NCBI RefSeq assembly: GCF_016127575.1
Contig: NZ_CP066018.1
Coordinates: 150,001 to 182,000, forward strand
DNA length: 32,000 bases
Origin: Cupriavidus necator
GTDB taxonomy: Bacteria > Pseudomonadota > Gammaproteobacteria > Burkholderiales > Burkholderiaceae
Reading direction: 5' to 3'
This document shows positions 2,863-14,645 of the stretch, one piece after another. The notes beneath the pieces are model-generated. The model saw nothing but the letters and a program-made list of their open reading frames with translations. It had not been told where the DNA came from and searched no databases. Positions within the stretch are counted from its first letter, which is position 1, and every line of letters starts with the position of its first letter. The translations under genes and the position numbers were made by a program.

Positions 2863-3843
2863 ATGAAATCCGTATTGAACCGTTTTGGCCGTACCCTGGG
2901 CGCGATCGCATTGGCTGCCTGCGCCACCAGCGCGCTGGCACAAGGCGGATATCCCAACCGGCCAATCCGCATCATCGTGCCGTGGCCGGCAGGCGGCGGC
3001 GTCGATGCCGTCACCCGCACGGTGGCCGAGAAGATGACCGCCAGCCTCGGGCAGCAAGTCGTGGTCGACAACCGCCCCGGGGCGACCGGCAATATCGGCG
3101 CCGGCATGGGCGCCAAGGCGGCGCCGGATGGCTACACGCTGCTGGTCGCCAGCGCGCCGATGGCGATCAACGCCAGCCTGCATAAGAACCTGCCCTTCGA
3201 CATGGGCAAGGACTTCGCGCCGCTGGGGCTGATGGCAAGCTCGCCGTACATGTTGGTGGTCAACCCGTCCGTGGGCGGCTCGGTCAAGGAACTGGTGGCA
3301 CGGGCCAAGGCGGAGCCCGGCAAGCTCAGCTATGCCTCGCCCGGCCCGGGCACCCAGCAGAACGTGATCAGCGAGGTGTTCAAGGAAACCGCGCATATCA
3401 ACGTCGTGCACGCGCCGTACAAGGGCGGACCCCAGGCGCTGACCGACATGGTGGGAGGCCATATCCACATGATGTTCCACGGCGTGCCGGCGGTGATGCC
3501 GTTCGTCAAGGGCGGCCAGCTCAAGGGCATCGCCGTGGCCAGCAAGCAGCGGCTGCCGTTGTTCCCCGACGTGCCGACCATGGCGGAAGCCGGCTTCCCG
3601 GGCATAGAAGCCAGCGAATGGTATGGCCTGGTCGCGCCTGCCGGCACGCCCAGGGAGATCGTTGCGCTGCTGAGCAAGGAAATCGACAAGGCGCTGAATG
3701 CGCCAGGTGTGCGCCAGCAGCTTGTCAGCAAGGGCTATGAGCCGGCCAGCCAGAGCTCTCCGGACCAGTTTGCGACGTTCATGGCGGCAGAGCAGAAGAA
3801 ATGGGCGCTCGCCATCAAGCAGACCGGGTTCCGGCTGGAGTAG
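2863..3843 (+). CDS. Bug family (TctC-like) tripartite tricarboxylate transporter substrate-binding protein
   Basis: SD GAGGAGA lies 6 nt before the ATG. Signal peptide ends in ...ALAACATSALAQG. Bug-family hallmarks are present: RIIVPWPAGGGVDAVTR, YASPGPGTQQN, and a C-terminal FMAAEQKKW-type segment. Length is 326 aa. Confidence 0.9.
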   Translation: MKSVLNRFGRTLGAIALAACATSALAQGGYPNRPIRIIVPWPAGGGVDAVTRTVAEKMTASLGQQVVVDNRPGATGNIGAGMGAKAAPDGYTLLVASAPMAINASLHKNLPFDMGKDFAPLGLMASSPYMLVVNPSVGGSVKELVARAKAEPGKLSYASPGPGTQQNVISEVFKETAHINVVHAPYKGGPQALTDMVGGHIHMMFHGVPAVMPFVKGGQLKGIAVASKQRLPLFPDVPTMAEAGFPGIEASEWYGLVAPAGTPREIVALLSKEIDKALNAPGVRQQLVSKGYEPASQSSPDQFATFMAAEQKKWALAIKQTGFRLE

Positions 3844-3859: not shown

Positions 3860-3888
3860 CCAGCCTGGACCGTAACGGTTCAGGCTGG
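3860..3888. terminator. long hairpin between convergent genes (candidate bidirectional terminator)
   Basis: CCAGCCTGGACC-GTAAC-GGTTCAGGCTGG forms a 12-bp stem with one G.T wobble. It lies between the Bug stop (3843) and overlaps the SulP stop codon (3880-3882). Flanking T-tracts are weak. Confidence 0.5.
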
Positions 3889-5610
3889 CTTGTCGACGTA
3901 GTCATCCACCGCACTGCCCACCGTGGGGTGGAAGTTCTTGTCGCCGATCGCTTCCATCAGCTCGAAGCGCTTGAGCTTGTCGCGCACCGGGTCCTTCATC
4001 TCGGCAAAATGCAGCGCGATGCCGCGCTCGCGCAGGATGCCGCTCAGTTCACGCAGCATGTCGGCCGAGGTGACGTCGACGCTGGTCACCGGTTCGGCCG
4101 CCACCACCACCCTGCGCACGGGTGTCGGCGATTCGTCGATCGCTTCCATCAGCCGCGCCTGGAACAGCTCGGCATTGGCGAAGAACAGCGGCGCATCCCA
4201 GCGGAACAGCAGCAGCCCGTCGATGCGCTCGGCATCCGGGTAGCGCTTGGTGTCGTGGTAGCCGCGCAGGCCCTCGACACGGCCGAGCACGGCATAGTGT
4301 GGCCGCCAGCCGTCCCACAGGAATTCGATCACTGCAAGGACCACGGCCAGGATGATCCCCGGGATCGCCCCGAACACGGCAACCGCGGCAAAGCAGACCA
4401 TCGACAGCCAGAACTCCCACTGCTGGATGCGGTAGATGCGCTTCAGGTCCGCGAACTCGAACAGGCCTATGGCCGCCGCGATCACCACCGCCGCCAGTGC
4501 GCTGTTTGGCAGGTACTGCAGCAGGTTGGGCGCGAACATCAGCAGCAGCGCCACGGCCAGTGCGCCCACGACTCCGGTGAGCTGGGTCTTCGCGCCCGCG
4601 GCTTCGGCCACCGGCGTACGGGACGCGCTGCTGCTGATCGGAAAGCCCTGGAAGAATCCCGCGGCCAGGTTGGCGGCGCCCAGGCCGACCATCTCCTGGT
4701 TCGGGTCGACCCGGGTGTTGGTGCGCGCGGCAAAGGTGCGCGACAGCACGCTGGTATCCGCGAACGAGATCAGCGCGACGGCAATGCCGCCCAGCAGGAT
4801 CGCAACCAGGTCCGCGCCACTGACCCAGGGCACGACAAAGCCCGGCAGCCCTTGCGGGGTCTTGCCCAGCACTTTCACCCCGTTCTGGTCGAGATCGAAC
4901 ATGCTGACGGCCACCGTCGCGACGATCACGGCAATCAGGATGCCGGGCACGCGCTCGAAGCGCTTCAGCAACAGGATCAGCACCAGGCTGCCCGCGCCGA
5001 CCGCAAAGCTGTACCAGTTGGTCTCGCCGCCCAGGATCGCCCGGCCGAGGCTGATCATCTCCCGCAGCGGGCCGGCGTCTTCGATCGAGATGGCGAACAG
5101 CTTGGGCAACTGGCTGACCAGCACGGTGAGCGCGATCCCGTTCATGTAGCCGTAGCGGATCGGCTTGGACAGCAATTCGGTAATGAACCCCAGCCGCAAC
5201 AGCCCCATCACGATGCAGACCACGCCCGACACGATCGCCATCATGCTGGCCACCATGACCGCGCGCCCCGGATCGCCGCCGGAGACCTGCAACACCACCG
5301 CCAGGATTGGCGCCGCCAGCGCCGAATCCGGCCCCAGCACGAGGATCCGGCTCGGGCCAAGCAGGGCATACACCAGCAGCGGGACCATGGTGGCGTAGAG
5401 CCCGTAGACACCGGGCACGCCGGAGGCCTCGGCGTAGGCGATGCCGACCGGCACCAGCATGGTCGTGAGCACCAGACCGGCGGCGAGGTCTTTCGGCAGC
5501 CAGGCCGGCTGATAGTTCTTCAACACCAGCAGTCCCGGGAGCCAGCGCAACCATCCGGGTGCCTTGTCGACTTCGCGCTGCGCGGCGGGGGTCAGGTTCT
5601 GGGGCTGCAT
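3880..5610 (-). CDS. SulP family inorganic anion transporter with C-terminal STAS domain
   Basis: Multi-TM body (LAAGLVLTTMLVPVGIAYAEASGVP..., GPDSALAAPILAVV...) plus a STAS-like tail (VVVAAEPVTSVDVTSADMLREL...ALHFAEMKDPVRDKL). Start chosen at Met89 of the track ORF (MQPQNLTPAAQ..., ATG at 5610). The upstream 88 aa are Arg/Cys-rich and not protein-like. No clear SD, so start confidence is lower than gene confidence. Confidence 0.88.
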   Translation of the reverse strand: MQPQNLTPAAQREVDKAPGWLRWLPGLLVLKNYQPAWLPKDLAAGLVLTTMLVPVGIAYAEASGVPGVYGLYATMVPLLVYALLGPSRILVLGPDSALAAPILAVVLQVSGGDPGRAVMVASMMAIVSGVVCIVMGLLRLGFITELLSKPIRYGYMNGIALTVLVSQLPKLFAISIEDAGPLREMISLGRAILGGETNWYSFAVGAGSLVLILLLKRFERVPGILIAVIVATVAVSMFDLDQNGVKVLGKTPQGLPGFVVPWVSGADLVAILLGGIAVALISFADTSVLSRTFAARTNTRVDPNQEMVGLGAANLAAGFFQGFPISSSASRTPVAEAAGAKTQLTGVVGALAVALLLMFAPNLLQYLPNSALAAVVIAAAIGLFEFADLKRIYRIQQWEFWLSMVCFAAVAVFGAIPGIILAVVLAVIEFLWDGWRPHYAVLGRVEGLRGYHDTKRYPDAERIDGLLLFRWDAPLFFANAELFQARLMEAIDESPTPVRRVVVAAEPVTSVDVTSADMLRELSGILRERGIALHFAEMKDPVRDKLKRFELMEAIGDKNFHPTVGSAVDDYVDKPA

Positions 5611-5813
5611 GGGTCGAGTTATGCCCTGGGCAGGCAAGGAGTATGCATCGACTATAGGAGGTCGCGCTTCGACAAATGTGCATCGAAGCAAAGAAAAAAG
5701 GGATTTTGGATTGCGCTGGCGGCACCAGGCCGAGGCTCCCGCGAGCCGCTCCGATGCTGCATCGCAACACCTCCTCGTGCTGCCACGCTGCCTGCGCAGG
5801 TCTGCGCGCTGTC

Positions 5814-5879
5814 GACAACCATCAGTTTCTGACAATCCCGCGACGGGCACATATGATGGTTGTCTGGCGGGCATGCCCG
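5814..5879. promoter_or_regulatory. nested inverted repeats in the SulP / secreted-protein divergent intergenic region
   Basis: Perfect 11-bp arms GACAACCATCA (5814-5824) and TGATGGTTGTC (5854-5864) enclose a small CCCG-CGA-CGGG hairpin. They are followed by the 12-bp perfect palindrome CGGGCATGCCCG (5868-5879), 24 nt before the ATG at 5904. Confidence 0.35.
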
Positions 5880-6336: not shown

Positions 6337-9300
6337 TCAGCCCTTCAGTTCGATCAGCAGATCCTTCGCCGCCACGCGATCCCCCTGCTGAACATGGACT
6401 GCGGCGATCTCGCAGTCCCGCTCCGCCGCGATATGGGTTTCCATCTTCATCGCCTCCAGCGCCAGCAGCGTCGTGCCCGCGGCCACGCGCTGCCCCGGCT
6501 GCACCGCCACCGTCACGATCGAGCCCGGCATGGGCGCGGCGACATGCAGCGGATTGTCGGGTTCGGCAACCGGACGGCCATGGCGCGCTGCCGCCGCTTG
6601 CGTGGTGCTGCGCTGCTCGACCAGCGTGGTGCGCGACTGCCCGTTCAGCTCGAACTGGACCTTGATGACACCCTCTTCGGCATCGGGGTGCGTGCCTTGC
6701 AGCGAGACCAGCAGGGTCTTGCCGGCAGCGATGTCGATCGCCACTTCTTCCTGCGGCTGCAGGCCGTACAGGTATGCCGGCGTGGGTACCACCGAGGTGT
6801 CGCTGTAGTTGCGCACATGCGCGTGGTACTCGCCGGCCTGCTTCGGGTACATCAGGTACGAAGCCAGCTGGCGGTCGTCGAGCGGCTGCTCGCACGCCGC
6901 TTCGGCCGCGGCGCGCGCCGCGTCGAGGTCGACCGGCGGGATCTGGTCGCCGGGCCGGTACGGCACGGGCGGCTCGCCGCGCAGCACCTTGCGCGACAGT
7001 TCCGCGGGGAAGCCGTCCGGCGGAAAGCCCAGCTCGCCCTTGAACAGCGACACCACCGATTCAGGGAAGGCAGTCTCCCTGGCGGGATCGCACACATCGG
7101 CGGCGCTCAGGTCGTTGGCCACCATCATCAAGGCCAGGTCGCCGACCACCTTGGACGTCGGCGTCACCTTGACGATGTCGCCAAACATCTGGTTGACCTC
7201 GGCATAGGCCCGCGACACCTCGGTCCAGCGATGCTCGATGCCGAGCGAGCGCGCCTGCTCGCGCAGGTTGGTGTACTGGCCGCCGGGCATCTCGTGGCGG
7301 TACACGTCGGCGGTGCCGGCGCGGATTTCGGATTCGAACGGCGCGTAGTAGCGGCGCACCCCTTCCCAGTACATCGACGCCTCGTGCAGGCGCTCCAGGC
7401 TGAGGCCGGGATCGCGCTCGCTGCCGGCCAGGGCCGCGGCGATGCTCGACAGGTTGGGTTGCGAGGTCAGCCCGCTCATGGCGTCGAGCGCGCCGTCGAC
7501 CGCATCGCAGCCGGCCTCGATCGCGGCCAGCGCCGAAGCGGCCGAGATGCCGCTGGTATCGTGGGTATGGAAATGCACCGGCAGCCCGGTCTCTTCCTTG
7601 AGCGCCCTGACCAGTGCCGCCGCGGCCTGCGGACGGCAGATGCCGGCCATGTCCTTGATGCCCAGCACGTGCACGCCGGCCTGCTTCAGCTCGCGCGCGA
7701 TGCCTACGTAGTACTTCAGGTCGTATTTGGCGCGCGACTTGTCGAACAGGTCGCCGGTATAGCAGATCGCGCCTTCGCACAGCGCGCCGCTCTCGCCGAC
7801 AGCATCGATCGCCACGCGCATGTTGCGCACCCAGTTCAGTGAATCGAACACGCGGAACACATCCACGCCGGCGCTGGCCGCCTGGCGCACGAAGAAGCGC
7901 ACCACGTTGTCCGCATAATTGGTGTAGCCAACCGCGTTGGAGCCGCGCAGCAGCATCTGGAACAGCACGTTGGGAACGCGCTCGCGCAGTTGCTCAAGGC
8001 GCTGCCACGGGTCTTCCTTGAGGAAGCGCAGCGCCACGTCGAAGGTGGCGCCGCCCCAGCACTCCAGCGAGAACAGCTGCGACAGTTCGCGCGCATAGAA
8101 CGGCGCGATCGGCAGCATGTCGGCGGTGCGCATGCGCGTGGCGAACAGCGACTGGTGCGCGTCGCGCATGGTGGTATCGGTCAGCAGCACCTGCTTCTGC
8201 TCCAGCATCCAGCGCGAGAACTTCTCCGCGCCCAGCTCGCGCAGCCGGTCGCGCGTACCGTAGGGCAGCGCGCCGCCGGTGTCGAAGGCGGGCAGCACCG
8301 GTGCGGGCAGCGGCAGCGATGGCAGCGTGCGGCCGCTCATCTCCGGGTGCCCGTTGACGCTGACCTCGCCCAGGTAGCGCAGCAGCTTGGTGGCGCGGTC
8401 CAGGCGCTTGGTGAACGCCAGCAGTTCCGGCGTCAGGTCGATAAAGCGCGTGGTGACGTCGCCGGACCGGAACGAGGGATGGTTGATGACGTTCTCGAGG
8501 AACTGCAGGTTGGACGCGACGCCGCGGATGCGGAACTCGCGCAGCGCGCGGTCCATGCGCCGGATCGATTCGGGCGCGGTCGGCGCCCAGGTGGTAACCT
8601 TGACCAGCAGCGAATCGTAGTACGGCGTGATCACCGCGCCGCCGTAGGCGGTGCCGGCGTCCAGGCGCACGCCGAAGCCGGCCGCGCTGCGGTAGGCAGT
8701 GAGGCGGCCGTAGTCCGGCAGGAACCCGTTCTCCGGGTCCTCGGTGGTGATCCGGCATTGCAGCGCGTGACCGTTGAGCGAAATCGCTTCCTGCACCGGC
8801 ACGCCCGCGGCGCGCACGACGATCTCGCCGTTCTCATTGCGCGTGTTCTCGGTCATGCCGAGATGGCCGCCTTCGGTCACGCGGATCTGCGCCTTGACGA
8901 TATCGATCCCGGTGACCATCTCCGTGACCGTGTGCTCGACCTGGATGCGCGGATTGACCTCGATGAAGTAGAACTGGCCGGAGTCGGCATCCATCAGGAA
9001 CTCGACCGTACCGGCATGCGTGTAGCCGACCGCGCGCATCAGCCGCAGGGCCGATTCGCACAGCGCGGCCCGGCCGGCATCGTCGAGGTATGGCGCGGGC
9101 GCCCGCTCCACCACCTTCTGGTTGCGCCGCTGCACGGTACAGTCGCGCTCATAGAGATGCACGAGGTTGCCGTGCGTGTCGCCGAGCACCTGCACTTCGA
9201 CATGGCGCGCGTTGCGCACCAGCTTCTCGACATACACCTCGTCGTTGCCGAACGCAGCCAGCGCCTCGCGCCGCGCCGCGGCGAGCGCCCCCTCAAGGTC

Positions 9301-9840
9301 CTGCTCGCGTTCCAGGACCCGCATGCCGCGTCCGCCGCCGCCCCAGCTTGCCTTGAGCATCAGCGGATAGCCGATGCCGGCGGCGAGGCGCTTGCACGTG
9401 TCCAGGTCATGCGGCAGCGGATCGGTTGCCGGCATCACCGGCACGCCCGCGTCGATCGCCGCGTTGCGCGCCGCCACCTTGTTGCCAAGCTTGCGCATGA
9501 CCTCGGGCGACGGGCCGATCCAGCGGATACCCGCGTCGATCACGGCCTGCGCGAAGTCCGGGTTCTCTGAAAGGAAGCCATAGCCCGGATGAATGGCGTC
9601 GACCTTCGCCTGCCTGGCAATGCGCAGGATATCGTCGATGTCGAGGTAAGCCGCCAGTGGCTTCTTGCCCTCGCCGACCAGGTAGCTCTCATCGGCCTTG
9701 AAGCGATGGAGCGCGAGCCGGTCTTCCTTCGAATAGATTGCCACCGTGCGCACGTTCATCTCGGCGGCCGCGCGCATCACGCGGATCGCGATCTCGGAAC
9801 GGTTGGCAATCAGCAGGGAGCGGATAGGGGCGTAGTCCAT
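6337..9840 (-). CDS. pyc: pyruvate carboxylase (single-chain: biotin carboxylase + carboxyltransferase + BCCP)
   Basis: N-terminal biotin carboxylase/ATP-grasp region (IRSLLIANRSEIAIRVMRAA..., MLKASWGGGGRGMR). HMGL-like carboxyltransferase region (LLTDTTMRDAHQSL). C-terminal biotinyl site LEAMKMET. Start set at MDYAPIRSLL (ATG 9840); the 23-aa upstream extension to 9909 is not typical. Confidence 0.95.
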   Translation of the reverse strand: MDYAPIRSLLIANRSEIAIRVMRAAAEMNVRTVAIYSKEDRLALHRFKADESYLVGEGKKPLAAYLDIDDILRIARQAKVDAIHPGYGFLSENPDFAQAVIDAGIRWIGPSPEVMRKLGNKVAARNAAIDAGVPVMPATDPLPHDLDTCKRLAAGIGYPLMLKASWGGGGRGMRVLEREQDLEGALAAARREALAAFGNDEVYVEKLVRNARHVEVQVLGDTHGNLVHLYERDCTVQRRNQKVVERAPAPYLDDAGRAALCESALRLMRAVGYTHAGTVEFLMDADSGQFYFIEVNPRIQVEHTVTEMVTGIDIVKAQIRVTEGGHLGMTENTRNENGEIVVRAAGVPVQEAISLNGHALQCRITTEDPENGFLPDYGRLTAYRSAAGFGVRLDAGTAYGGAVITPYYDSLLVKVTTWAPTAPESIRRMDRALREFRIRGVASNLQFLENVINHPSFRSGDVTTRFIDLTPELLAFTKRLDRATKLLRYLGEVSVNGHPEMSGRTLPSLPLPAPVLPAFDTGGALPYGTRDRLRELGAEKFSRWMLEQKQVLLTDTTMRDAHQSLFATRMRTADMLPIAPFYARELSQLFSLECWGGATFDVALRFLKEDPWQRLEQLRERVPNVLFQMLLRGSNAVGYTNYADNVVRFFVRQAASAGVDVFRVFDSLNWVRNMRVAIDAVGESGALCEGAICYTGDLFDKSRAKYDLKYYVGIARELKQAGVHVLGIKDMAGICRPQAAAALVRALKEETGLPVHFHTHDTSGISAASALAAIEAGCDAVDGALDAMSGLTSQPNLSSIAAALAGSERDPGLSLERLHEASMYWEGVRRYYAPFESEIRAGTADVYRHEMPGGQYTNLREQARSLGIEHRWTEVSRAYAEVNQMFGDIVKVTPTSKVVGDLALMMVANDLSAADVCDPARETAFPESVVSLFKGELGFPPDGFPAELSRKVLRGEPPVPYRPGDQIPPVDLDAARAAAEAACEQPLDDRQLASYLMYPKQAGEYHAHVRNYSDTSVVPTPAYLYGLQPQEEVAIDIAAGKTLLVSLQGTHPDAEEGVIKVQFELNGQSRTTLVEQRSTTQAAAARHGRPVAEPDNPLHVAAPMPGSIVTVAVQPGQRVAAGTTLLALEAMKMETHIAAERDCEIAAVHVQQGDRVAAKDLLIELKG

Positions 9841-9932
9841 GGGATGCAGGGAAGCGAACCAGCCGCGCGCAACCGCCACGGCAGGATCAGGTGATCGGGG
9901 ATGCAGCACGGGCGCAAGGCTTGCCCGGGCTG

Positions 9933-10133
9933 CTAGTCGTATTGGGCAAATGGGACGTGCGAGTCCATCCAGTCATAGTGCGCCGATGCAGCGGCCCACG
10001 CCCAGTTGGCCCGCTTTGGCGACTGCTGGTCCCGATCGCCATGCTCGCTTCGGTTCTGGCCGGCAAGTGGCTGATCGCCGTCCCCGGCAAGCTCGCGGCT
10101 GTGCGCGCGGGCTCCGATTCTTCCGTAGTACAT
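9933..10133 (-). CDS. hypothetical 66-aa protein (hydrophilic, Trp/His-rich C-terminus)
   Basis: Good SD (GAGGAAGG, 7 nt spacer) before the ATG at 10133. Third-position GC is high but lower than in neighbouring genes. No family recognised, so this could be non-coding. Confidence 0.3.
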   Translation of the reverse strand: MYYGRIGARAHSRELAGDGDQPLAGQNRSEHGDRDQQSPKRANWAWAAASAHYDWMDSHVPFAQYD

Positions 10134-10324
10134 CGTGGTGCCTTCCTCATCAAGACCAGGTTCGCCTGCCCACGACGCAGCGCGATGCAGGGCGACGGCA
10201 GGTTTGCAGGCACGATGAAATACGCGCCCGCCCCGTCCTGCTGCCGCAAGAACCGGGCCACGGCCGGTTCAGGCACCATCCCTTTGATTTGGCAGAAGAT
10301 TTTCTTCCGAGGCCGGCTTAACGA

Positions 10325-10351
10325 ATTTCAGAAATGAAATTTTTCATTTCA
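10325..10351. promoter_or_regulatory. AT-rich palindrome cluster (TTTCA/TGAAA pentamers), candidate operator
   Basis: Perfect 9-bp arms GAAATGAAA (10331-10339) and TTTCATTTC (10342-10350) with a 2-nt spacer. They overlap a second palindrome ATTTC-A-GAAAT (10325-10335). The cluster lies in a conspicuously AT-rich island within a GC-rich genome. Confidence 0.3.
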
Positions 10352-10464
10352 TGGGTGCCGCGGCCAATGCGCGATGCAGCACCTGTGCCTCGCGGCAACC
10401 GGGAGGGCCGGCGTGGGCAACGTGGCCAGGCTGACGACGCCCGCCCGGCCACGAATGCAGGCCT

Positions 10465-11184
10465 TCAGCAGGCCGCGGCCTGGGGCGAAGCCAGTGCGCA
10501 GTATGCGGGGGCGCCGGCCGTGGCAATGCGGGCGCAGTACGCCGGCTCTTCCGCCCTGGCGATACGTGCGCAATACGCGGGCTCTTCCGCCCTGGCCATG
10601 CGCGCGCAGTACGCAGGTTCGTCCGTCCTGGCGATGCGTGCACAGTACGCGGCCTCTTCCGCCTTGGCCATGCGTGCGCAGTACGCGGCCTCTTCCACCT
10701 TGGCCATGCGCGCGCAGTACGCCGGTGCCTCCGTCCTGGCAATGCGTGCGCAGTACGCGGGCTCGTCGGCCGCTGCCCGGGCACAATATGCGGCAGACGT
10801 CAGCGGGCTGCCGAATTCGCGCATGCTCAGCGCATCGCTCGCAGCGGCCATTTGCAGGAGGCGGGCCTCGTCCTCCGGACCGTCGATGCCAACGTAGGGG
10901 TCATGGTGAAGGACATAGCCGAAGATGCGCTCGCAATCGCTCGCATAGCGCCTGGTGTCCAGGATGTGGGCATGCCAGAAGGCATCCACCTGCTCGCTGG
11001 GGACGACGGGCGTGTCCGGATGCTTCGCCGCCAGCTTGAGGAATTGCCGGTAGCCGCTCTCCGCCTGCTCCAGCGATTCCGGCGACCAATGCGCATGCTT
11101 CTGATGCAGCAGCTTGGCCTTCATCCTGGAAAAGTCCAGGGCGTCGATGGCCTGCCACATGATTTCAATAGTACGGTCCTGCAT
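10465..11184 (-). CDS. DUF1399/GRDP-like (glycine-rich-domain-containing-protein-like) His-rich domain fused to nine tandem AYCAR 12-residue repeats
   Basis: SD GGGAG lies 7 nt before the ATG at 11184. The N-terminal ~125 aa carry HQKHAHW and FWHAHILDTRRYASDCERIFGYVLHHDPY, matching the WHxHxL..Y..DC...G..L.HD signature as I recall it for PF07173. The C-terminal ~110 aa are AYCARxAxxEEP units and the protein ends ...AYCALASPQAAAC. Confidence 0.8.
   Translation of the reverse strand: MQDRTIEIMWQAIDALDFSRMKAKLLHQKHAHWSPESLEQAESGYRQFLKLAAKHPDTPVVPSEQVDAFWHAHILDTRRYASDCERIFGYVLHHDPYVGIDGPEDEARLLQMAAASDALSMREFGSPLTSAAYCARAAADEPAYCARIARTEAPAYCARMAKVEEAAYCARMAKAEEAAYCARIARTDEPAYCARMARAEEPAYCARIARAEEPAYCARIATAGAPAYCALASPQAAAC
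10496..10794 (-). repeat. tandem 36-bp coding repeat array (8 units in 36-bp register, one 33-bp step, then a terminal partial unit)
   Basis: Plus-strand units begin with GCGCAGTACGC at 10496, 10532, 10568, 10604, 10640, 10676, 10712 and 10748 (exact 36-bp phase) and at 10781 (33-bp step). Units differ at roughly 3-6 positions each. Confidence 0.95.
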
Positions 11185-11237
11185 GATCTAGCTCCCTGTT
11201 ATTGGACTGCTTAAGCACGCACCGGACTGACGGGCAG

Positions 11238-14200
11238 TCAGGCGCGCATCGGTTGCGGTCCATGCTCGAGAGCGGGACCGTTCTCCATGCGGCTGGCCAG
11301 GAAGGCAGTGATCTTCGCCGGCGGCAGCGGATGGCTGAAGTAGTAGCCCTGCACTTCGTCGCAGCCTTCGCGGCGCAGGAACTCGAGTTGCACCTCGTTC
11401 TCCACGCCTTCGGCGACCACTTCGAGGCCAAGCCGGTGGCCAAGGCCGATCACCGCGCTGGTAATCTGCGTGTCGCTGCGGCTTTCCGGTATGTAGCGGA
11501 CGAAGCTGCCGTCGATCTTGACCGTATCGATCGGGAAGCGGCTCAGGTAGGCGAGCGAGGAGTAGCCAGTGCCGAAGTCGTCGATCGCCAGCCGGACACC
11601 GGTGCGCTTCAGGCGCGAGAGCCAGCTGGACGCCTGTTCGGCATCGCGCATGACCATGCTCTCGGTGAGTTCAAGCTCCAGCAGGTTGCCGGGCAGCCCG
11701 GCTTGCCGCAGGGCATCGATGATGGTCAGCCTGAGCGACTTGTCGGCGAACTGCCGTGCCGAAAGATTGACTGAAACACGCACCGGCGGCAGTCCCTGCG
11801 CGCGCCATGCGGCATTCTGCCGGCACGCTTCGCGCAGGGCCCAGGCACCGATCTCGACAATGGCGCCGCTCTGCTCCGCGAAGGGAATGAAATCTCCGGG
11901 CATGACCAGGCCGAGTTCCGGGTGGCGCCAGCGGATCAGTGCCTCGACCGCCGTGCACGCTCCCGACGCGAGCGCAATGCGCGGCTGGTAGTAGAGGATG
12001 AATTCGTCCTGCTCGAGCGCGCGGTGCAGGTGCGACTCCATGTCGATGCGCCGCTGCAGCGACGCGCTCATGCCCCGGCAGTAGAACTGGTAGCCGTTCT
12101 TGCCGAGCTGCTTGGCACCATACATGGCCAGGTCGGCATGCTTGAGCAGGGTCTGCCAGTCGCTGCCGTCCTCGGGGAAGGAACTGATGCCGATGCTTGC
12201 CGTCATGCGCAGTTCCGACTCGTTGACGACGAAGCCTGGCGCGAGCGCAGCCTGGATCCGGGCAATGGTCCGGTCCAGGATCGTCGAATCGCCCTTGGGG
12301 TCCAGCAGCACGACGAATTCATCGCCGCCGAAGCGGGTGATCAGCTCCACCTCCTCCAGGCTGCCGCGCAACCGGTCGGCCATCTCGCGCAGCACGATGT
12401 CGCCGGCATTGTGGCCGATGGTGTCGTTCACGACCTTGAATTCGTCCAGGTCCACGAAGATGACATGCAGGGCCTGGCCGCTGGCGCGGGCACGGGTCAG
12501 CGCCTGCTCGAACTCGGCCTTGAACATGAGGCGGTTGGGCAGCCCGGTAAGGGCATCGTGATTGGCGATGAAGCGCAGGTTTTCCTCGGCCTGGCGCCGC
12601 AGCAGGAAGTGCCCGGTCTGATTGGCAATGCCGCTCGCCATCGCGAGCGCATGCGTATCGGGGCTGCGCTTGCTGCGGGAATAGAGTTCGACCACGCCGA
12701 GGCTCACGTGGCCCCGGCTCAGCGGGAAGGCGAACACCGTCCGGATACCGCCCGCGTCGAGCCACCTGGCTTGCGGATGCCGGGCCATCGCGCTGCGGCT
12801 TGCATACCATTGCGGCGCCGGCAAGACCGCGGCGCCGGCCGGCCCTGCAGGGCGCTCGGCGAGCCACGGCTGCAGCGTCTTGACGCGGGCCAGGTAGACC
12901 GGCGGCAGCTTCAGCCCCTGGCTGTCATCGCCCGGCCAGAAGGCACCGGCCTCCCAGTCCATGCCTTCGAGCAGCGTGTGGACAATCCCCTCCAACACCT
13001 CGATCTCGCTGGTGGCGGTGGCCAGGTGCAGGGCAATCTGGTGTTCCTGCGTCCTGGCCTGCTCGGCGGACCTGCGCTGGCTGATGTCCTGCGCGGTGCC
13101 CCGCAGCACTGCGCTGTCCGGCGCTCCATGCGCGTGGCCGATCAGGTGCAGCCAGCCCCGGCGTCCGCGCCGCGACCGGTACGGGCACTCGAACTCGAAC
13201 GGCTGGCGATCCTGCAGGGCTGTCCGCATCCTTTCCCGCAGCACGGCGCGATGGCCGGCGTCGATCGCCTGGAACAGCGCTTCCGGAGTCGGCTTGTCGC
13301 CGCGCAAGCCTAGCAGGCGCGCCATTTCCTGGGAAAAGTGCGCGATGTCCTGGTCCAGGTCGATGCGCCAGTCGCCCAGGTGGGCAATCTGCTGCGCCTC
13401 GGCAAGCGCGGCCTGGCTGTCGCGCAGGCTGTGCGTCATCTGGTCGGCCACGGCCACGGCGCGCGCGCGCGAACTCGACAACGCGTAGGCCAGCCACCCC
13501 AGCAGCACGCTGATGATCAGGCCGGAAATCACCACCAGCCCCGGCAGGTAGCGCTGCGGACCACTGATGGCCTTGGCATCGGCAGCAAACGCAATCACCC
13601 AGCGCCGTCCGCCGAAATTCCGCACCACGCTCTTGGCCAGGTCATGCTGGCCCGGGGCCGCCTGGGCGTCCGCCAGTGCGGTCGCGCCATGCGCGGCACT
13701 GGCGTGGACGGTGCTGCCGCCAGCAACCCGGCTGCGTTCCCTGGCCGCCAGGCCGGTCACGCTGTCATAGAGCAGGTTGGCTGCAGAGAGCGGAACCGCC
13801 GCCTGCGCGAAGTCTCCGGCATCATGCACGCGGAACCGGATCCGGCGCAGGTTCTCATTGCTGACCAGGTCCTTCAGCAGGTCGTCCACCCGGATCCCCG
13901 CGCCAACCGAGCCGACATAGGCGCGCCGGCGCGCTTCCACGGAATCCAGGTCGGGCACCTTGCGGTACACCGGCAGGCGCAGCGCGATGCCCACATGCGG
14001 GTTCTTTGCCTCGCTGAAGATCAGGCGCCCGCTGCTGACTGGCTGCCCGGTATCGCGCGCGCGTTCCAGCGCGGCCAGGCGGCGTGGCTCGGCGCCCATG
14101 TCGATGCCGATCGACGCCAGGTTGAGGGCGAGCGGTTCGACATAGGTCAGCACGAAATGCCCCGGCCGCTGGCCGGGAGGGCGGACGTTGAACGTCACGC

Positions 14201-14645
14201 CGGCCTCGCGCAGGATCGGATCGCTGCGCTGCCGGGCGACAAAGGCGTCGATCTCGGCCGCCGGCACGTAGGGCGCGTAGTTCAGCGTCTGGAAACCGGG
14301 ATAGCGCTGCGGCAGGTTCAAGCCGCTGACGAAATCGCGAAACTCGCCGCGCGAGACATGGTCGCTGGCGCCGAACAGCGCCTGCATGGTCACCAGAACA
14401 TCGGTATAGAGGCGGATCCGTGTATCGATCTGCTGGATCACGTCGCCGGTATCGTTCTCAAAACGCAGGCGGACGTCCTTCTCAAGCAGGTCGGTGCAGA
14501 ACGCATAGACGACAGCCGTCGTCATCACGCCAAGCAGCAAGGTGCCCGCGGTGATGGTGCGCGACCCAAGGCGTCCAAGCGGGCGCAGCGCGCGCGCAAG
14601 CGTCTGGCGCAAGATTGTTTCCCCCCGGATGTCGATGGCAACCAT
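11238..14645 (-). CDS. CHASE-PAS-GAF-GGDEF-EAL sensory c-di-GMP turnover protein
   Basis: N-terminal TM segment plus a CHASE-like periplasmic domain (SRGEFRDFVSGLNLPQRYPGFQTLNYAPYV), then a second TM segment and PAS/GAF-like regions. Intact GGDEF (RFGGDEFVVLL; no RxxD I-site 5 aa upstream). Intact EAL signature set (EALIRW, DDFGTGYSSL, KIDGSFV, EGVE, QGYYFSHP). Confidence 0.93.
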   Translation of the reverse strand: MVAIDIRGETILRQTLARALRPLGRLGSRTITAGTLLLGVMTTAVVYAFCTDLLEKDVRLRFENDTGDVIQQIDTRIRLYTDVLVTMQALFGASDHVSRGEFRDFVSGLNLPQRYPGFQTLNYAPYVPAAEIDAFVARQRSDPILREAGVTFNVRPPGQRPGHFVLTYVEPLALNLASIGIDMGAEPRRLAALERARDTGQPVSSGRLIFSEAKNPHVGIALRLPVYRKVPDLDSVEARRRAYVGSVGAGIRVDDLLKDLVSNENLRRIRFRVHDAGDFAQAAVPLSAANLLYDSVTGLAARERSRVAGGSTVHASAAHGATALADAQAAPGQHDLAKSVVRNFGGRRWVIAFAADAKAISGPQRYLPGLVVISGLIISVLLGWLAYALSSSRARAVAVADQMTHSLRDSQAALAEAQQIAHLGDWRIDLDQDIAHFSQEMARLLGLRGDKPTPEALFQAIDAGHRAVLRERMRTALQDRQPFEFECPYRSRRGRRGWLHLIGHAHGAPDSAVLRGTAQDISQRRSAEQARTQEHQIALHLATATSEIEVLEGIVHTLLEGMDWEAGAFWPGDDSQGLKLPPVYLARVKTLQPWLAERPAGPAGAAVLPAPQWYASRSAMARHPQARWLDAGGIRTVFAFPLSRGHVSLGVVELYSRSKRSPDTHALAMASGIANQTGHFLLRRQAEENLRFIANHDALTGLPNRLMFKAEFEQALTRARASGQALHVIFVDLDEFKVVNDTIGHNAGDIVLREMADRLRGSLEEVELITRFGGDEFVVLLDPKGDSTILDRTIARIQAALAPGFVVNESELRMTASIGISSFPEDGSDWQTLLKHADLAMYGAKQLGKNGYQFYCRGMSASLQRRIDMESHLHRALEQDEFILYYQPRIALASGACTAVEALIRWRHPELGLVMPGDFIPFAEQSGAIVEIGAWALREACRQNAAWRAQGLPPVRVSVNLSARQFADKSLRLTIIDALRQAGLPGNLLELELTESMVMRDAEQASSWLSRLKRTGVRLAIDDFGTGYSSLAYLSRFPIDTVKIDGSFVRYIPESRSDTQITSAVIGLGHRLGLEVVAEGVENEVQLEFLRREGCDEVQGYYFSHPLPPAKITAFLASRMENGPALEHGPQPMRA

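Follow-up and report, generated by a model that had tools for sequence, protein, structure and literature searches.

A GRDP-like protein with a tandem aromatic-cysteine tail is encoded beside one lineage of CHASE sensors in Cupriavidus necator and its relatives

The stretch of DNA analyzed here (the window) comprises 32,000 nucleotides of the Cupriavidus necator contig NZ_CP066018.1, positions 150,001 to 182,000. On its minus strand lies a gene for a protein of 239 amino acids, P0001, in which a conserved N-terminal domain is followed by a tail of tandem cassettes built on the motif A-Y-C-A. The original prediction, made from the letters of the window alone, had singled out this gene but overlooked its partner, a gene for a CHASE sensor that lies immediately upstream and whose pairing with the cassette gene is conserved. 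The features of the locus are as follows.

10465..11184, minus strand: coding sequence of the cassette protein P0001, 239 amino acids, stop codon included (list of open reading frames and translation)
11192..11196, minus strand: Shine-Dalgarno-like GGGAG, 7 nt ahead of the ATG (read from the sequence)
10804..11184, minus strand: N-terminal UCP032817-like/GRDP-like domain, residues 1-127, six helices (Pfam, alignment, AlphaFold2)
10468..10791, minus strand: tail, residues 132-239, nine A-Y-C-A cassettes in tandem with a 36-nt period (Tandem Repeats Finder, codon test)
11185..11237, minus strand: intergenic spacer of 53 nt that separates the sensor gene from the cassette gene
11238..14645, minus strand: partner sensor gene, membrane protein of 1135 amino acids, directly upstream of the cassette gene (Pfam)

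The minus-strand open reading frame (ORF) with its GGGAG element and 7-nt spacing was borne out by the ORF list and the sequence, and the nine units of the tail proved identical, letter for letter, to those originally described. As had also been stated, the cysteines follow one another at a distance of 11 and then seven times 12 residues, and the final cassette, which is divergent, closes the protein with a Cys. Tandem Repeats Finder described the array by a 36-nt period (7.7 copies, score 290) and by a 108-nt period (score 383). We compared the codons of the seven 12-residue units pairwise and found 32 synonymous and 0 non-synonymous differences at the positions A-Y-C-A-R and Ala7, as against 24 synonymous and 71 non-synonymous differences at the remaining six positions. 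Because the codons of the cassette core differ only synonymously, the repeat is maintained by selection on the protein. Judged by these codons, the core A-Y-C-A-R is the selected part of the repeat while the spacer is not, and the array is not a product of chance. An ORF on the plus strand (10334-10897) with AMRAQYAGSSAL repeats is a mirror image of the array and was rejected, because the RNA is sense for the minus strand and conservation tracks the minus frame. By inspection, neither the CxPxR motif of the formylglycine-generating enzyme (FGE) type nor a lipobox or a CxxCH motif fits the cassette.

Expression was evaluated over 9800-12200 in the raw data of three stranded RNA-seq runs labeled with the same species (X21, X22, and X24 among their labels). 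The mean sense depth, as averages of bins, was ~430, ~610, and ~4,800 over the cassette gene and ~86, ~91, and ~450 over the upstream sensor gene, a 5-11-fold difference. The depth climbs ~4-fold to 10-fold across 11340-11100, which implies that the gene, despite its operon-like position, has a 5' end or promoter of its own close to the 53-nt spacer. A simple consensus scan around the cassette gene found neither a sigma-70-like promoter nor a terminator. P0001 is a real and well-expressed gene, and its product is a two-part cytoplasmic protein, which has no transmembrane segment. Reads in antisense orientation (200-250) were also found over 10529-10771 of the array in X22 and in smaller number in X21, at ~40-55% of the sense depth there, while they made up 1-2% of sense in X24; they could represent either a library artefact or antisense RNA. 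Read ends pile up at 10480-10484 in X22.

The partner protein contains CHASE (residues 95-281), GAF_2 (545-679), GGDEF (694-850), and EAL (873-1106) domains according to Pfam, and its inputs comprise CHASE, PAS, and GAF. Because the CHASE domain is flanked by two hydrophobic segments, it is predicted to be periplasmic. The catalytic motifs for the turnover of c-di-GMP (cyclic dimeric guanosine monophosphate), namely GGDEF as well as EAL and DDFGTG, are intact in an alignment of 26 orthologues. At 29 of 30 Burkholderiaceae loci, the sensor orthologue ends where the cassette gene starts, the 30th locus being cut by a contig end. We surveyed the neighbors at 80 named loci of a species-representative collection and found a CHASE domain in the nearest neighbor at 66 of them. 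Fifty-six of these neighbors are CHASE-GGDEF-EAL proteins encoded directly upstream on the same strand with a gap of -14 to +79 nt (-14 to +15 nt in Trinickia), and they include Variovorax and Ideonella proteins that are only ~36% identical to the sensor of the window. The other 10 are CHASE-PAS_3-HisKA_3-HATPase kinases, mostly divergent. Among the 14 exceptions, a cut contig or a split upstream gene accounts for nine, and the tails of two are not of the cassette type. Extra cases include an AYSG array beside a CHASE kinase, another AYSG array behind a CHASE-PAS-GAF-GGDEF-EAL protein, and an AWCG array beside a CHASE kinase; as counter-cases, one AFCAR array adjoins a dCache kinase, and one array has no sensor neighbor. 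The GRDP-like domain as such occurs widely without a sensor next to it.

A maximum likelihood tree built from 35 CHASE domains brought all 23 that are cassette-adjacent, from proteins of both output types, together in one clade (support 99/98). Outside it lay 11 other CHASE paralogues of these genomes, among them the second CHASE protein of this genome, and inside it lay a single extra paralogue. This extra member, L168 of genome G675, is a paralogue of that genome's cassette-linked sensor, and a motif scan detected no cassette-like ORF within 14 kb of it. The cassette gene was present in 21 of 78 Cupriavidus genomes, and all 21 carried the orthologous sensor; ~55 genomes had neither gene, one incomplete genome had only a sensor fragment, and one had a 122-amino acid remnant. 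Because the genomes are related, these counts are descriptive and do not amount to a statistical test. At the level of genome comparison, it is firmly shown that the cassette gene and one CHASE(-PAS) sensor lineage form a two-gene module with either GGDEF-EAL or a histidine kinase as its output. The part that travels with the cassette gene is, by the same comparison, the CHASE(-TM-PAS) sensing module (TM, transmembrane segment) and not the output domain. A complex prediction for the N-domain and sensor residues 375-1135 gave a score of 0.00 ("no answer") and speaks neither for nor against binding.

Two further observations concern the sensor genes. At the CHASE-kinase loci, a convergent gene for a dCache_1-GGDEF diguanylate cyclase lies just downstream of the cassette gene (L104:8945-10720 and L099:8700-10244, both on the minus strand, and three more loci of the Noviherbaspirillum type), so that a c-di-GMP enzyme is found nearby there as well. 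A Cupriavidus assembly of 10.1 Mb with 7% contamination (G808) holds four copies of the CHASE region (89-91% identity) on three contigs and one match to the cassette gene; the copies may reflect a mixed assembly or a duplication.

The original prediction had placed the N-terminal part of the protein in the DUF1399/GRDP-like family (GRDP, glycine-rich domain-containing protein), and this placement holds. With the N-domain alone (residues 1-130), the Pfam scan matched PF07173 (GRDP-like, formerly DUF1399) over residues 36-83 at 24.3 bits, above the cut-off of 22.7 bits, while the whole of P0001 scored 22.1 bits, just below it. P0001 and all 113 homologues of near-equal length also have a precomputed match to PF27765.1 ("UCP032817-like"). 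Using an alignment of 28 diverse members, AlphaFold2 predicted a domain of six helices with a predicted local distance difference test (pLDDT) value of 91.7 and a predicted template modelling (pTM) score of 0.86. Compared with other predicted models, this domain reached template modelling scores (TM-scores, normalized by query) of 0.75-0.77 with Streptophyta clusters of PF07173, that is, plant GRDPs, and 0.92 with a bacterial cluster.

The two His clusters noted earlier are both present, as HQKHAHW at residues 27-33 and as the FWHAH...HHDPY block at residues 69-97, but only the second is invariant family-wide; HQKHAHW is lineage-specific and was not kept beyond close kin in the 28-member alignment. 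The invariant residues are D67, W70, H71, H73, D76, T77, Y80, D83, C84, F88, G89, H93, H94, P96, G99, and G102. The signature W-H-x-H-I-x-D-T-x-x-Y-x-x-D-C ... F-G ... H-H-x-P is found in cassette and non-cassette members alike. No solved structure matched the N-domain by sequence profile, by Foldseek (E>1), or by VIA-align wide (best Z 5.1), and a language-model search for look-alikes that skipped both Pfam families gave no usable match. Weak globin-like and phycobiliprotein rows in the structure searches lay within the background of helical proteins and were not taken as evidence. The N-domain is a member of PF27765/PF07173 with an orphan fold.

The same kind of tail was found in more than 110 homologues from Cupriavidus, Paraburkholderia, Trinickia, Variovorax, and Noviherbaspirillum. 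The domain family is far larger; a profile search of 1.84 billion representatives with E<=1e-3 as threshold yielded 13,364 clusters (at 50% identity), of which 4,740 reached E<=1e-10. Beyond the conserved domain, the tails of family representatives are hypervariable: among 148 of them, 43 carry at least three aromatic-Cys cassettes, nine carry aromatic-Ser cassettes, and 43 have Cys-rich tails free of cassettes. Across the family, the cassette reads A-[Y/W/F]-[C/S]-[A/V/I/G], with S also occurring at position +1. Ala occupies position -1 in 91% of cassettes and is followed by the aromatic residue (Y in 78%, W in 13%, and F in 9%) and then by C (93%) or S (7%). The aromatic residue and the flanking Ala are conserved as strongly as the Cys. 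The period ranges from 11 to 15 residues across relatives, and the copy number from 2 to ~24; one C. necator strain has 19 copies and Paraburkholderia terricola ~24. Each clade has spacers of its own (ARMAKAEEP, ITPGAEAKP, VKPEAKGDAK, and AVSASSKP, as well as SLEAGKP behind AAWC in Variovorax). Whole arrays that carry Ser for Cys were seen in Undibacterium, genome G675, and one Trinickia metagenome-assembled genome (L085) nested among Cys-using relatives; L139 and P0153 are examples of such arrays. The tails of orthologues retain periodic aromatic-Cys cassettes, with copy number varying widely, which is an outcome in support of the original prediction.

The tail of P0001 holds 10 Cys in 108 residues, 11-12 residues apart and without CxC or CxxC. 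In the full-length AlphaFold2 model, its residues 131-239 have a pLDDT of 30-44, with no helices and a short strand drawn at each cassette. The helical repeat scaffold once considered for the tail is not supported by this model and was rejected. In other bacterial members, the domain stands before a TIGR04222 membrane domain with a Ser/Gly/Cys tail (for example, L118), or it follows a single transmembrane helix and the tail consists of S-S-C repeats. The recurrent theme of the family is this domain in cis with a low-complexity tail bearing Cys or Ser.

Several side observations were made on the tails. Many distant tails (P0131, P0134, P0156, and P0181; L099 and L107) carry an R-P-[T/S/R/G]-L motif 3-8 residues from the C terminus. 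In Cupriavidus, the final divergent cassette is usually preceded by R-P (RPAYCAL[T/A]SP...) and is often Cys-terminated; this terminal R-P element may be a separate recognition site. Draft assemblies break or hold runs of N within the array (L038 and L057, both from Cupriavidus sp. UYPR2.512, and L065), so that copy numbers from draft genomes are uncertain; in Cupriavidus sp. UYPR2.512, the first 90 codons close one contig, and the remainder opens another. A search for longer fused forms found none, which is weak evidence. P0114, a protein of 149 amino acids from Cupriavidus sp. IK-TO18, consists of 26 residues of GRDP-like core followed by a PilZ (c-di-GMP-binding) domain and probably arose by a deletion that left a remnant of the cassette gene fused to one for PilZ. 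A further protein of 555 amino acids (L120:2678-4345, plus strand; G371, Cupriavidus; C1:1002177-1003844) fuses a degenerate GRDP-like domain, in which H73, D76, and H93 are replaced, to a radical S-adenosylmethionine (SAM) enzyme (PF04055, E 2e-15); the matches include maturase models of the SPASM type. Behind it lies a gene for a major facilitator superfamily (MFS) transporter, and the stretch seems, by eye, lower in G+C than its flanks; the region may be a small peptide-modification island.

The CHASE sensor is the only conserved neighbor of the cassette gene. The other genes around it in the window look ordinary, and none of them is kept next to the cassette gene outside close kin. A minus-strand ORF of 1190 amino acids at 6337-9909 resembles pyruvate carboxylase by inspection of its translation; it lies downstream and was rejected as a partner because it adjoins only in close kin. 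Pfam identified a SulP/STAS transporter at 3880-5874 on the minus strand and a TctC-family binding protein at 2863-3843 on the plus strand. The single gene of the genome for a multinuclear non-heme iron-dependent oxidase (MNIO, PF05114) is located at C1:3582280, ~3.4 Mb from the window (C1:150001-182000), and P0001 has no NCBIfam match to TIGR04222. Distant representatives on short metagenome contigs offered too little context to be used; among them, P0133 adjoins a TonB-dependent receptor, a single case.

We tentatively favor the view that the tail is a multi-copy substrate, modified or cleaved at its aromatic-Cys/Ser positions with help from the domain in cis, and that its product is tied to the sensor. 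The cassettes would form a substrate array comparable to the "cores" of precursors of ribosomally synthesized and post-translationally modified peptides (RiPPs). Within it, the Cys or Ser beside the aromatic residue would be modified, or the array would be cleaved, while the protein's own N-domain would act as a recognition module or as a metal-dependent catalytic one. The modified protein or the freed units would be what the adjacent sensor reads or what it controls, which in this organism would provide a link to c-di-GMP turnover. Candidate chemistries that tolerate an exchange of Cys for Ser are the formation of an azoline, a thioether or ether to the aromatic ring, and cleavage through an N-to-S/O acyl shift. 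This proposal is favored by the combination of a conserved domain with hypervariable repeats, by the rapid change in copy number, and by the high expression, as well as by the tolerance of Ser for Cys and of Trp or Phe for Tyr and by the family-wide pairing in cis, plants included. The relatives with a TIGR04222 domain and the one fused to a radical SAM enzyme also count in its favor. The excess of cassette-gene over sensor-gene RNA is in line with the usual expression of precursor genes, and a conserved N-terminal part followed by hypervariable, repeated C-terminal units is a feature of RiPP precursors.

Several points weigh against the substrate proposal. A co-localized modifying enzyme, protease, or exporter would be expected of a RiPP precursor, but no maturase, protease or peptidase, or exporter gene is conserved beside the cassette gene in Cupriavidus, Paraburkholderia/Trinickia, Variovorax, or Noviherbaspirillum, which extends to the loci of all clades what had been noted for this one. 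The fold of the N-domain matched no enzyme in the structure searches, and metal binding or catalysis by it is putative only. P0001 has no signal peptide, its N terminus being helix 1 of the domain, so that the path of a product to a periplasmic CHASE domain is unexplained, and the shared CHASE-TM-PAS module cannot separate periplasmic sensing from cytoplasmic contact. In addition, the presence of the domain in plants as well speaks for a general function inside the cell and not for a secreted signal, and arrays of short motifs in variable copy number are also found in unprocessed scaffold proteins. We consider it unlikely that processing of the array, perhaps by the protein's own His-rich domain, yields many copies of a short peptide or small molecule derived from the aromatic-Cys/Ser units and that this product serves as the cognate ligand of the co-inherited CHASE sensor.

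The main rival would leave the protein unprocessed. It would be an accessory subunit in the cytoplasm that binds a metal or cofactor through its N-domain, senses a cytoplasmic cue, docks on the cytoplasmic PAS/GAF region of the sensor, and tunes the GGDEF/EAL or kinase output, with the tail as a multivalent docking or regulatory element, following the logic of stand-alone H-NOX or NosP proteins. The steady position beside a histidine kinase or GGDEF-EAL protein with the same sensor module would suit such a subunit, as would the tight or overlapping genes of Trinickia, the lack of a signal peptide and of export genes, and the invariant His/Asp/Cys set, which resembles a ligand-binding site. It is harder to reconcile with a gene that is expressed at 5-11 times the level of its supposed partner and with a copy number that varies from 2 to ~24 between close relatives, which is odd for a stoichiometric subunit; moreover, the sensor already has CHASE, PAS, and GAF inputs, and the same domain is widespread away from sensors. 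We regard this explanation as possible but rather doubtful.

The remaining explanations turn on the cassette residues themselves. If the protein served as a thiol or metal buffer or in redox stress, the cassette Cys, together with Tyr or Met, would coordinate Cu(I) or another soft metal or would neutralize oxidants, and the sensor would control the protein or merely accompany it. One Cys per cassette, Met in many spacers, high expression, and Cys-rich tails elsewhere in the family are in keeping with this idea, and Cupriavidus is a metal-tolerant genus. The tails of bufferins and of TIGR04222 proteins have come up in discussions of copper (PMC12452194). However, whole arrays use Ser in place of Cys (nine of the 148 representatives, L139, P0153, and L085 within a Cys-using Trinickia clade), which disfavors a purely thiol-based or metal-based role. 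Together with the use of Phe or Trp for Tyr, these arrays weaken the Cys/Tyr redox or metal tail of the original prediction. The Cys density is also low (10/108, no CxC or CxxC), and the aromatic residue and Ala are equally conserved, which leaves such a buffer quite improbable. Least of all do we expect a self-assembling beta-rich repeat protein, for example, a component of a c-di-GMP-linked matrix or aggregate with one strand per cassette and Cys cross-links, which seems very remote to us. AlphaFold2 does draw a short strand at every cassette, and the partner is a c-di-GMP enzyme, but these strands have a pLDDT of only 30-44, there is no signal peptide or secretion system, and the Pro/Gly-rich spacers of sister clades are poor amyloid formers.

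The only papers that literature searches retrieved were on plant GRDP physiology and an MNIO survey; none dealt with bacterial members or connected them with CHASE sensors, although an unindexed paper is possible; the earlier statement that no bacterial member has been characterized thus stands. To our knowledge, the GRDP/DUF1399-UCP032817 domain has no known biochemical function, and the ligands of bacterial CHASE domains are largely unknown. From the comparisons made here, the cassette-sensor module appears to lie outside the known kinds of system, while its functional role is proposed only. The domain is very widespread and reaches land plants, and this locus offers a tractable bacterial entry point to it, as the organism is genetically amenable, the gene is expressed in ordinary culture, and the tail has a sharply defined motif. 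Its specific partner, a CHASE sensor whose GGDEF and EAL domains are intact, provides a measurable read-out through c-di-GMP, biofilm, and motility, and a genetically linked candidate for a ligand source or co-sensor would make the question of CHASE ligands testable. If the tail is modified, it would represent a new class of fused multi-core peptide or of protein modification. If the product were indeed the ligand, the module would constitute a self-contained autoinducer-receptor system feeding c-di-GMP or two-component signaling in Burkholderiales, and it would give a first biochemical function to the GRDP/DUF1399 domain shared with plants.

Among known proteins, the plant AtGRDP1 and AtGRDP2 (DUF1399, PF07173) share with P0001 the N-domain family, by hidden Markov model and by predicted fold (TM-score 0.75-0.77), and a C-terminal low-complexity tail with interspersed Cys. 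The tails of plant GRDPs are Gly-rich with interspersed Cys and follow the consensus [CG]GGGCGG[GC] (PMC4299439). Unlike P0001, the plant proteins have ~800 amino acids, extra C2 and GRDP_C regions, and a Gly/Cys-rich tail without aromatic-Cys cassettes; they are described by physiological phenotypes only (stress, auxin/abscisic acid), and a biochemical function is known for neither the plant nor the bacterial protein. TIGR04222 proteins have been proposed as MNIO substrates, and their association with MNIOs has been described (PMC12452194). Like P0001, TIGR04222 proteins and bufferins, as proposed or proven MNIO substrates, carry a Cys-bearing low-complexity tail behind a conserved N-terminal part, and some TIGR04222 proteins have an N-terminal GRDP-like domain; P0001 differs in having no TIGR04222 domain, transmembrane segment, or nearby MNIO gene and, by these features, is not a TIGR04222/MNIO substrate. 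From metallothionein-like buffers it is set apart by its low Cys density, by the lack of CxC and CxxC, and by the Ser that replaces Cys in the arrays of relatives.

The original prediction had likened the design to that of plant BURP-domain proteins, which are fused, autocatalytic multi-core peptide cyclases characterized by copper dependence, cross-linking, and core release. The likeness stands insofar as a conserved, His-bearing domain and many short aromatic cores share one chain with no separate maturase. It does not extend to the domain itself, since P0001 has no Pfam match to BURP at E<=1 and its all-helical domain is unrelated; the resemblance is one of logic only. H-NOX and NosP proteins likewise adjoin histidine kinases or GGDEF/EAL proteins, but their fold is unrelated; a repeat tail is absent from H-NOX proteins, whose partner enzymes mostly have no periplasmic sensor. 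Peptide quorum-sensing pairs such as AgrD/AgrC and ComC/ComD place a precursor gene beside that of a receptor kinase, and the cassette locus resembles them in logic only. In contrast to these precursors, P0001 has no export leader or signal and no processing or export gene at its locus; its folded domain of 127 amino acids is far above leader size, and the receptor is a CHASE protein whose output is often c-di-GMP. What the cassette locus has in common with such pairs is a small gene of high expression whose product varies in its C-terminal part, an adjoining membrane receptor with an extracytoplasmic sensor, and a receptor lineage that travels with it.

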